From a virus: a DNA stretch of 26,395 bases. Shown piece by piece: positions 12,601 to 15,600 of the stretch (position 1 is the first letter of the stretch; every line of letters begins with the position of its first letter). The stretch lies in the UHGV virus genome UHGV-0085321; one strand, written 5' to 3'. Made by a program: the position numbers.

Positions 12601-15600
12601 AGGGTATAAGCCATTATCAAAGCCCACCCGTAGATAGGCTTTGTAATGGCTACTTCGCTTTTGCTTCCGCTCGCTTACGCCGGCGCTCTTCTTTCCTCTC
12701 GGCTTTTGCCATGTCCATGAATGCCTGCATGATCGAGTTCCGCATCATGTAGCTAACAAAGTGATGATTGACACAGCCGTTGAGGCGCAGCTGCTCGCCA
12801 AACTCATCCACCGAGGCCAATGCTTCCATCATGCCCTTCTCGCCTTTCATGAACTCTGAGAAGTCGCGCCCCGCTCTGGAGGCGCATTCAATAACACGAT
12901 CACTCATCCCGGAAGCCCGGGGATCGTAATCTGCAGCTGGTTAGCCAGGGAGTTAATCTCAGCGACCAACACTGGCTTCGTATAGCGCCATGCTGCCAGC
13001 CCTTGTCCGCAGAAGCTCGCCATGTCTTTCTTCTGGTCAAACTCATGACATTTCATGTTGAGCTGCGCACTTAAGCTGTTGCGATGCTGAAGTTCTCCGG
13101 TGAAGTAGTCATCGAGGACTTTATAGGCCGCGTACTTGAACCCGGGGTTTAACCAAGCCGCATAATCGTAAGCAACAAACTTCCCGCCATATGTTCCACC
13201 GTGTACACCGCGCTCAGTAAAAACCACAGATTCGTGGTTTTTCTCCAGCTCGGCTAAGAACTCTTTGGTCTGCTTGTTTCGCAGGTAGTGGTAAGGCGAT
13301 TCAGATTCACTTTTACCACTGGCTTTCCACATATCAGTGAGGCAGATCATGCCATCTTCACCGATACGAATTGGTTGATTGAAGAGGGTTAATGATTTCA
13401 TAGCGTGTACCTACTCTTTGAAATGAACCTTTGCCGCACAGGAAACCAGCCCACCGAGGCTCGCCAGCACTAACTGGTATCCTCAAAGGCCCATTCCAAA
13501 GGGGCAGGTTCGGTGTAAAAAACATGCGTTGCGGTACGCATTTATTGCAAAAAGCCCCGCATCGCGAGGCTCATTAAATGGACTTTGTGATTTGCAAAAA
13601 AATTAATTCAGACATTGCGTCCTGATGTATTCCTGCAGGTAGTTAACCTGCGCGGTTATCTTGTCGATTCCACTTCGGAGACGGTAATAATTGAGTTCAG
13701 CATCTGCTGTAAGTCCTGGGCTTTCTCCATCGCCCATGCCGCTGGCTCCGGTCGTTGACTTTGCACAGGTGGCGGCGACTTGCAGGCGCTTACGCCCAGC
13801 AGAAACATCAGCACGGAGACTTTCGATAGTCGCGTTAGCATCAGCAAGCTCCTTTGTATATCTGGCATCGAGTTCTGCTACGTCACGTTGACGCTTCTGC
13901 ATGTCAGCGATGATGTACGTGGCTTTATCGCGCTGTTCTTTATAGGTAATGGCGTTATCACGGTAATGATTAACAGCCCATGACAGACAGACGATGATGC
14001 AGATAACCAGAGCATAAATAATCGCGGCGACTCTGCTCACTGATCTATCCCCCAACAGGCTAATGCGCTTTCCTGGTCACGACGAATAACCTGTCCATAG
14101 CAGTTATTTGAACGTATGCGGCAATCGCGCCCACCATCTATTATCCACCAGCGAATCGCCTCGCATGCGCCCTTACGATCACCGGCATTCAGCCGCTTAT
14201 AAAACGTCGACGGGAAACACTTACCGGGGCCAATGTTATAGGGACAGAATGACGCTATACCCGCTTTCTGTGGTTCGGTCAGTGGTACTTTAATATTGCG
14301 CTCCACCCATGCCAGCGCCTTATCACGCTCAATGGCGTTGACCTGGTCGCATTTTTCCTTCGACAGTTTCATACCGGGAAAAACGGGTTTTCCATCCACC
14401 ATCGTGGCACCCCGACAGATGGTCCAGATGCCGGACCCATCGCGGTATGCCGTTGTGTGGTTACCTTCTTTTTCATCCAGAAACTGGTCGAGAATATCAG
14501 GCGCGGGCGCACCGACGGCAATCAGTGCCAGAACGGCAGCCGACAGGCCGTATCTGATTTTTGCGTTCATGGATATTTATCAGGATTTATCGGTTTCTGC
14601 CCACGGACAGGTTTATCTGTTCCGGTCAGTGACTTAATGTTGTGATTCCGGAGGAGTCTTCAGAGAACCAGTAATTATTCCTGGTAGCTTTCCTTTGTAG
14701 GTTATCCACACATTCTGCGCATCTAAAATTACGGGGCGCTTTTCCGGCGACTGCTCATCCCCTTCACATAACCCGGCAGCAACATCCAGGAAGACCTGTC
14801 TGATGCTCCTTCTGGCTGCTGCCTCATAAAACCCCAGCGCGGCACCTTCAACACGGTCCAGCGAGATGTCCAGGTCAAAAATTTCACCGTCAAAGCGTTT
14901 TTTGTCCCGTAACGCTAAAGTTACCGTAACTTTATTCTCAAAATTGCGGATCCCTTTCACAATCAGTTCATAGTTTTGAGTCATTGAATTACTCTCCCCG
15001 TGCAGCCTTACGACGGTCCTCTCTGATTTTGAAATACAGGTTAGTCAGATATGTCAGGAAGCCCAGAACCAGACTCCCCAGTACACCAATCGCAGCCCAC
15101 TGTGACGGACTGACCTGATCAAGCCACTGTAAAAACCAGTAGCCAGCACTGCCTGCGGAGGTGCCGTAGGCAATGCCAGTTGAGATTTTGTCCATTGATT
15201 TCATAGCAACGCCTCCGCCAGTAACGGATTGCGTAGTTCTTATATTGGGAAGGGAAAAAAGAAGGCCGCAGCGTAACTATCACTGATGAATTCAGGATAG
15301 CCAGTGGCTACGGCTCAGTTATGGTGCTGGTTAACGGACTTGAACCGCTACCCATTCGCTTACAAGGCGACTGCTCTACCATTGGAGCTAAACCAGCATG
15401 TTTGGCGGGACAGCGTGGACTCGAACCACGATAAGAAGGTTAACAGCCTTCCGTAATGACCTTTATACGACTGACCCAAATAAAAAAAGCCACCGTTGCA
15501 ACTTAAGAGTCACTAACGGCAGCTTACCTTCTAATTATGGCTAAATAGATAATTGCATGTCAAGGCTTTTAACAGCAACATGCTTAACTTTCTCAACACG

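Follow-up and report, generated by a model that had tools for sequence, protein, structure and literature searches.

Between the lysis genes and cos of the virus genome UHGV-0085321, analysed here over its whole stretch of 26,395 nucleotides (the window), lies a two-gene cassette encoding a 165-residue protein with KilA-N and ORF11CD3 domains and a coupled protein of 85 residues (amino acids, aa). The window represents a lambdoid phage, or prophage, whose late genes lie on the minus strand. We put at somewhat better than even, about 55%, the reading that this cassette is a late-operon accessory unit of the Bro/Rha ('antirepressor-like') network, silent in the lysogen, throttled when expressed late, and Rha-like. 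The pair itself was known before, as a common accessory unit homologous to hkbK/hkbL of phage HK620. The newly found element is the leader in front of it, which is common to late accessory genes of the KilA-N, Rha, Ant and nuclease types.

From 5' to 3' the cassette consists of terminator T, small hairpin h and hairpin H of ~100 nt, then the kilA-N::ORF11CD3 gene with the 85-aa gene coupled to it through ATGA, and last a 3' hairpin:

13549..13570, minus strand: intrinsic terminator T, just after Rz, the 5' boundary of the cassette
13515..13541, minus strand: small GC hairpin h with U6; stem-loop 13541-13524 (AUGCGU-ACCGCA-ACGCAU)
13409..13509, minus strand: long imperfect hairpin H of the leader, with the Shine-Dalgarno (SD) sequence GUAGGU at 13409-13414
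12904..13401, minus strand: gene for the 165-aa KilA-N + ORF11CD3 protein, hkbK homologue
12650..12907, minus strand: gene for the 85-aa protein, hkbL homologue, with the ATGA start/stop overlap
12609..12651, minus strand: 3' hairpin from the stop codon of the 85-aa gene, the 3' boundary of the cassette and possibly a bidirectional terminator

Both open reading frames (ORFs), and the 4-nt overlap that an earlier note on this DNA had described, are present as listed; at the junction (...CCGGGATGAGTGAT...) the TGA of the KilA-N gene shares 4 nt with the ATG of the 85-aa gene. Terminator-like hairpins mark both ends of the cassette, and a consensus scan of the coding strand over 12100-14100 detected no promoter-like site of the sigma-70 type. 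The region around the 3' hairpin (12570-12665) folds at -37.5 kcal/mol (z -5.87), and an equivalent hairpin or terminator lies 3' of the small gene in HK620, mEp235 and the loci L087, L097, L099 and L100; in L099 the stem is built of other bases with the pairing kept.

The structured leader and its link to rha

Terminator T consists of a stem at 13570-13554 (GCCUCGC-GAU-GCGGGGC) followed by U5 at 13553-13549, and with a fold of -14.6 kcal/mol (z -3.2) it bears out the first of the two tandem terminators that the earlier note had placed after Rz/Rz1. The second is less convincing: h was found by a terminator scanner with its T6, but its fold is weak (-6.9 kcal/mol, z -1.0). Across 66 distinct leaders h is kept as GCGCAY-N4-7-GCGC, with compensatory changes in three of its four pairs, while the T-run is missing in most relatives, which indicates that conservation applies to a hairpin of the leader and not to a terminator. 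In the basal stem of H, ACCUGC pairs with the SD sequence GUAGGU, and the minimum free energy (MFE) fold of the intergenic region reaches -73.8 kcal/mol (z -3.65). The same T-h-H architecture stands upstream of KilA-N genes across unrelated contexts, with H ending just before the start codon. Nearly all leader copies have the AGCCTCGC....GCGGGGCTTTTT terminator element in front of them, irrespective of what lies further upstream.

We built a covariance model from 12 variants and, together with a pattern scan of IMG/VR, collected 78 leader copies, 66 of them distinct. Among these 66, 96.6% of the cells are paired, compared with 24-59% in slid controls, and 19 of the 23 pairs show changes on both sides. 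Cells with double changes number 105, against 16.3 +/- 3.5 after shuffling, and none of the 500 shuffles reached the observed value. An independent RNAalifold analysis recovered the same helices, with compensatory changes in 16 of 19 pairs. G-U pairs are frequent and the opposite strand scores only ~16 bits, which argues that the element is an RNA on the sense strand. In addition, pairing of the SD sequence reaches a probability of 0.7 or more in 52 of 64 distinct leaders (median 0.95).

Conserved and structured, the leader seems to be missing from Rfam and from the searchable literature. At the gathering score, a search of the whole window against Rfam returned only two tRNAs, and at E<=1 nothing credible for the leader appeared in 12100-13700. 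A leader peptide was considered and rejected, since the 55-aa ORF at 13358-13525 is not conserved, other variants lacking its ATG. We observed a further leader variant in Klebsiella, mEp235 and HK022 (L087/L094, e.g. L094 1627-1772), whose MFE structure pairs GGGAUAUGAGACAG with CUGUCCAUAUCU instead of following the consensus pairing; two mutually exclusive structures may be possible there.

The leader ties the cassette to rha. In P22 the order is Rz-rha-...-gene 3 and in phi80 it is Rz, an annotated terminator, rha and cos, so that rha occupies the slot of the window pair; in the window, P22 and phi80 alike, the gene has the lysis cassette on one side and the packaging genes on the other, and it lies behind a terminator and leader and is co-oriented with the late genes. 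This classical rha slot, like the identity of the pair with hkbK/hkbL, had escaped the earlier note. The covariance model matches P22 (NC_002371) at 39500-39646 with 91 bits and phi80 (JX871397) at 43639-43777 with 143 bits. Window and P22 share the long hairpin at ~99% identity, yet the coding sequences that follow it are unrelated. Read from the ATG at the end of the leader, P22 Rha comprises pRha and ORF11CD3 domains and shares 35% identity with the window protein in the C-terminal region. The N-domain of the window protein is KilA-N instead of Phage_pRha; it thus shares the rha slot but is no Rha protein. P22 and phi80 rha also differ from the window in having no coupled small gene.

The placement of the leader bears on the rha genes themselves. 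The ATG at its end lies at 39644 in P22, against an annotated start at 39575 ('orf201'), and at 43775 in phi80, against 43739. Because the leader ends at the downstream ATG, both annotated starts fall inside the hairpin. Judged from this placement, the annotated starts are probably wrong and the true P22 and phi80 Rha proteins are probably 178 and 172 aa long; the Rha proteins behind other leader copies have 172-180 aa. PMC4936722, with reference to Henthorn & Friedman 1995, describes P22 rha as belonging to the late operon and as harming lytic growth when integration host factor (IHF) is lacking, and the phi80 record carries the note 'DNA synthesis inhibition in IHF- hosts'. The IHF-dependent phenotype is known only for rha.

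The genes behind the leader are varied. They include Phage_pRha genes with or without ORF11CD3, several KilA-N subtypes, P22_AR_N+ORF11CD3 and ANT/KilAC genes, the domain of the small protein fused to T5orf172, HNH_3+AP2 endonuclease genes and a few genes of unknown type. Most of the Rha genes, and most Bro-type genes behind the same leader, have no coupled small partner. Such shuffling is characteristic of the Bro/KilA-N/Rha/Ant network (Iyer, Koonin & Aravind 2002, as applied in PMC10111431): pRha+ORF11CD3 and P22_AR_N+ORF11CD3 stand behind the same leader, and KilA-N+ORF11CD3 and KilA-N+P63C precede the same small gene. The window protein, with a KilA-N N-domain and an ORF11CD3 C-domain, is built like the members of this network, in which the same C-domain is carried by Rha and P22_AR_N proteins and KilA-N is also joined to P63C. 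One difference from the network concerns the 85-aa protein: its ~60-residue N-terminal domain is missing from the listed members and is here a separate coupled gene.

Several genomes carry more than one leader. In phi80 a second copy (45233-45354, 55 bits) lies directly upstream of PHI80_66, a 242-aa protein 'similar to N15 gp59' without a Bro-type domain, and similar unknown proteins follow the leaders L157 and L103; the leader thus also serves non-Bro accessory genes. E. coli MS 196-1, a 99.6% relative of the window, has a second leader before an HNH_3+AP2 gene between Q and holin (L003 1430-1562; also L070 996-1128), and the window holds two tRNAs (15322-15477) at the corresponding site. 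Some prophages (L033 1529-1672; L042 447-592) contain two leader-bearing genes in one late region, at a distance of ~1.3 kb, a P22_AR_N+ORF11CD3 gene with a small hydrophobic ORF first and the KilA-N pair second. Behind the leaders L156 (8833-8970), L150 and L178 we observed a 198-aa gene of unknown family followed, with a 4-nt overlap, by a protein of 57-67 aa that is unrelated to the 85-aa protein and likewise has a basic tail (…RKGRIFDDCLYIAKQWAGKQKGKK). These loci are a second case of a leader followed by a gene and a coupled small basic protein.

The two proteins and the spread of the pair

Profile searches with Pfam confirmed the KilA-N domain of the earlier note (PF04383, residues 9-101, E 1.3e-15, 57.6 bits against a cut-off of 23.8) and added one that it had missed, ORF11CD3 (PF10549, residues 109-161, E 2.4e-13, 50.5 bits against a cut-off of 25). 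The protein has the APSES-like alpha/beta DNA-binding fold. Neither protein matched a PDB entry in a sequence search, and a profile search recognised no nuclease domain in either. Against diverged homologues, the ratio of non-synonymous to synonymous substitution rates (dN/dS) is 0.07-0.29 for both genes, a sign of purifying selection, which indicates that both ORFs are real genes. Near the C-terminus, at the ORF11CD3 end (window 12904-12940), we observed a conserved ...QLQI(T/N)IPGL motif, which we take to resemble the QLxLxL beta-clamp-binding motif; if this is true, it would fit a Rha-like replication-inhibiting activity.

The 85-aa protein belongs to PHROG 875, annotated as of unknown function. 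An AlphaFold 2 model with a mean predicted local distance difference test score (pLDDT) of 92.2 consists of three helices (3-20, 26-42 and 48-84), and a Foldseek search of this model against PDB and BFVD returned generic helical bundles only (E>0.1), leaving the protein without a fold match. In the family alignment 22 residues are invariant, and the charged tail, pointed out in the earlier note, is indeed rich in Arg and Lys and conserved across the family as (K/R)E(E/D)RRxKR. The conserved tail KEERRRKRAEAK (window 12650-12710) resembles the arginine-rich motifs of the N proteins of lambda and P22. Separately, hairpin h (13524-13541) resembles a boxB-type stem-loop. Tail and hairpin may form a protein-RNA pair, although most leaders occur without the small protein. 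A zinc site formed by C8, C45, H48 and H49 was considered and rejected, as these Cys/His residues are not kept in distant members.

The distribution of the small protein is narrow, as that of an optional accessory partner. An exhaustive hidden Markov model search of 1.84 billion proteins gave just 19 representatives at 50% identity; at 90% identity the family forms 138 clusters, whose source names are nearly all Enterobacterales. The partner is limited to two KilA-N subfamilies and a rare Rha case. At all 83 examined loci with the small gene (80 from IMG/VR together with HK620, PhiR49_1 and E. coli MS 196-1) the KilA-N+ORF11CD3 frame ends in the overlapping TGA, the frame being truncated in one. 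Diverged homologues included, the small gene always stands beside a Bro-type gene. In Klebsiella one identical 83-aa homologue follows either a KilA-N+P63C or a KilA-N+ORF11CD3 gene. One distant homologue overlaps by 4 nt with a Phage_pRha gene directly downstream of an arc-ant (immI-like) operon, and another is fused to T5orf172/MUG113 beside KilA-N+P63C and Arc/Bro-N genes. These contexts point to the ~60-residue N-terminal domain of the small protein as an interchangeable piece of the Bro network. P22 orf80 was rejected as a counterpart of the 85-aa protein; judged by its position and its size of 80 aa, it looks like the counterpart of HK620 hkbM.

The match to HK620 has ~97% DNA identity over the matched 60% of a 1401-bp query, and the HK620 85-aa protein is identical over the aligned residues; the ATGA overlap and the location behind the lysis genes agree as well. 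HK620 differs from the window in being a pac-type, P22-like phage and in carrying another sequence variant of the leader. The pair is also homologous to the 'kilA' pair of the Stx phages 1717 and 2851 and occurs in PhiR49_1 (as 'KilA-N-ORF11CD3'), ECP1, Salmonella phages, and prophages of Klebsiella and Enterobacter; among 5426 complete E. coli genomes, 389 carry at least 80% of the 752-bp pair. The small gene is found in addition in HK022, in HK97 (truncated), and in mEp and Klebsiella phages. Comparison of PhiR49_1 with PhiR49_1_star over record positions 14000-18500 revealed a difference only inside terminase A and is thus uninformative on the pair.

The genomic setting varies as well. In mEp235 and HK022 a KilA-N+P63C gene with the small gene follows Rz. 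In Klebsiella the unit lies between a tail-chaperone-like gene and the tape measure gene, and in an Enterobacter prophage between tape measure and Dit, where the small gene overlaps the Dit start. The cassette is always co-oriented with the late genes, including the copies in tail operons. The slot between conserved neighbours holds the KilA-N pair, rha or other genes, depending on the phage. Together with the constant company of a Bro-type gene, this supports the earlier view that the two genes form an accessory unit and that their site is a variable one of the moron type; the GC content of the cassette (0.47-0.55) is like that of its flanks, so it lacks the distinct composition of a moron in the sense of Hendrix and Juhala.

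Expression of the cassette and competing explanations

Read as a Rha-like accessory unit, the cassette would be expressed as follows. Lacking a promoter of its own, it would be transcribed only by Q-modified RNA polymerase coming from pR' and reading through T; the absence of a promoter would make transcription depend on antiterminated polymerase passing T. Translation of the first gene would be throttled by sequestration of its SD sequence in H. Relief of this occlusion might come from cleavage of the RNase III type, for which the lambda N leader is the model, from a host factor linked to IHF, from another factor, or not at all. The second gene would be made by termination-reinitiation coupling. 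The outcome would be small, late-only amounts of a DNA-binding regulator that is harmful if over-made and that, by analogy with Rha, may act on DNA replication or on the regulator of another element. The 85-aa protein would be an optional accessory subunit, with a nucleic-acid-binding or adaptor domain, and not an antidote. A design that is silent in the lysogen and low in the late phase suits a product harmful in excess, as for rha.

SD-sequestering leaders are familiar from phages, namely the lambda N leader with its RNase III site and the leaders of T4 late and homing-endonuclease genes. The window leader is like these in forming a long imperfect hairpin 5' of the start codon with the SD sequence in the 3' arm. 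It is unlike them in having no sequence or Rfam relation to them, in having a terminator and another small hairpin upstream, and in being common to a whole class of accessory genes; processing would be by analogy only. We tentatively raise, as an unlikely thought, that the leader is an undescribed class of cis-regulatory RNA that gates translation of potentially harmful Bro-network and homing-endonuclease-type genes of temperate enterobacterial phages and answers to a specific trans-acting factor. Candidates for that factor are RNase III, an IHF-dependent step, and the Arg-rich tail of the 85-aa protein binding a hairpin as N binds boxB. An IHF-dependent step on the leader, if true, would explain the old Rha/IHF phenotype.

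A number of points weigh against the Rha-like reading. The absence of a promoter comes from a consensus scan only, and the conserved GCGCAT..GCGCAT-ATYAA could be an operator or a weak promoter. RNase III may process the leader, purely by analogy, and the role proposed for the 85-aa protein comes only from the domain contexts in which it occurs. The alignment behind the covariation counts was fitted to the model. The IHF consensus WATCAANNNNTTR is absent from the window leader, and the analogy with Rha covers the slot, the leader and the C-domain, not the DNA-binding domain. Finally, the searchable literature holds no functional work on hkbK/hkbL, KilA-N-ORF11CD3 or the leader, and no function is reported there for hkbK or hkbL.

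The GCGCAT..GCGCAT-ATYAA element, represented in the window by GTTTTTTAC, was itself examined as a sigma-70 promoter in more than 60 variants inspected by hand and rejected, its hexamers being poor and not conserved. A LexA box was likewise rejected, since CTGTG(A/C)GA(A)CAG has the wrong spacing.

A serious alternative, although we consider it unlikely, is a selfish mobile cassette similar to a freestanding homing-endonuclease gene, whose regulation would mainly lower the cost to the carrier phage. T4 freestanding endonuclease genes use hairpins that sequester the ribosome-binding site, and the leader of the window also precedes nuclease-type selfish genes of the HNH_3+AP2 and T5orf172/MUG113 types. 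The cassette occurs in unrelated phages at sites after Rz, between tail chaperone and tape measure, and between tape measure and Dit; leader and small gene are constant while the middle gene is swapped, and the domain of the small protein is also found fused to T5orf172. Yet neither protein of the pair has a recognisable nuclease domain, both genes are under clear purifying selection (which is compatible with selfishness), and ordinary lambdoid recombination at conserved leaders would yield the same mosaic.

It is doubtful that the KilA-N protein is a true antirepressor, inactivating a CI-type repressor of the phage itself, of a co-resident prophage or of a satellite, with the effect, doubtful to the same degree, of reinforcing lytic commitment or cross-inducing neighbours. 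P22 Ant belongs to the Bro network, the same leader precedes P22_AR_N and ANT/KilAC genes, and a Rha gene directly downstream of an arc-ant operon is followed by a coupled, distant relative of the small gene. The homologue in Klebsiella phage RAH1 is even annotated 'antirepressor', but this label was given by similarity only. Late, Q-dependent expression would come too late for the phage's own induction, and KilA-N is a DNA-binding fold, not a demonstrated repressor-binding module. No LexA-box-like CTGT-N8-ACAG was noticed in the leaders by eye, no pattern search having been run.

The earlier note had raised a toxin-antitoxin-like (TA) or exclusion module as a candidate. In such a module, or in one of the abortive-infection kind, the KilA-N protein would be the toxic or sensor component, the 85-aa protein would neutralise or partner it, and the pair would protect the lysogen. 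We regard this as improbable. The translational coupling is tight, P1 KilA is lethal when expressed, and PADLOC gives a weak match to the candidate defence system PDC-S22 (E 1.2e-8), which covers ~30 residues of the KilA-N stretch only. However, toxin and antitoxin families in Pfam, NCBIfam, PHROGs and PADLOC matched neither protein, nor, apart from this KilA-N-level hit, did any defence family. A promoter of its own, as expected of a type II TA operon, was not found in the consensus scan; a terminator and an occluded SD sequence lie upstream instead, and the cassette is co-oriented with the late genes, with copies embedded in tail operons. Most alleles with the same slot and leader lack the small partner, and two very different KilA-N proteins have an identical small protein as partner. 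A TA or exclusion system that protects the lysogen needs the reverse of silence in the lysogen and low late expression.

The same explanation draws on BstA, a protein of about 300 aa with a different C-terminal region, encoded beside the repressor and expressed in lysogens. The prophage defence protein BstA has KilA-N as its N-domain (PMC8585504), and like the window protein it comes from temperate enterobacterial phages. In contrast to BstA, the window protein has 165 aa, ends in ORF11CD3 and is encoded in the late region, and its architecture is not that of a BstA-like abortive-infection protein.

The cassette adjoins Nu1/cos in the window and lies within tail clusters elsewhere, which might suggest a function in packaging or in the virion. 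Such a function is scarcely credible: neither protein resembles a structural or packaging protein, the position varies among phages that package differently (cos, lambda-like; pac, P22-like), P22 and phi80 have rha in the slot instead, and lambda is not known to carry the KilA-N pair.

Surroundings of the cassette and significance

The cassette is flanked by the usual late genes of a lambdoid phage:

15541-16059: Q, in the minus-strand late region
15322-15477: tRNA-Asn(GTT) and tRNA-Thr(TGT), between Q and holin
14989-15204: holin
14634-14984, minus strand: YdfR-family ORF of 116 aa, between the holin and lysozyme genes
14037-14570: lysozyme
13603-14055: Rz, with Rz1 embedded
12396-12572, plus strand: ORF of 58 aa between the cassette and cos, hypothetical in RefSeq
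11561-12106: Nu1
9661-11586: terminase A

The YdfR-family ORF thus sits inside the lysis cassette, and the annotation of E. coli MS 196-1 is identical in this respect. Around 12286-12297 lies a cos-like site (GGGCGGCAGGCG...), which we take to be cos from its likeness to that of lambda. The cassette had been described as lying just before cos; cos is its downstream neighbour, but the site is ~350 nt past the 85-aa stop codon, with the 58-aa ORF of the opposite strand in between. This ORF has no Pfam or PADLOC match. In PhiR49_1 and similar relatives the gap before cos is widened by opposite-strand genes of the YbcV/DUF1398 and YlcI/YnfO families, which suggests that the gap between cassette and cos is the true opposite-strand moron slot.

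The pair itself is an ordinary, widespread possession of lambdoid and other temperate enterobacterial phages. Through slot, leader and C-terminal domain, KilA-N genes of the hkbK/hkbL type are tied to the never-explained rha of P22 and phi80, and the placement of the leader suggests that the annotated starts of P22 rha (orf201) and phi80 rha are probably wrong. The strongly covarying, unannotated leader offers a testable handle on how potentially harmful accessory genes are kept silent and on the role of IHF.

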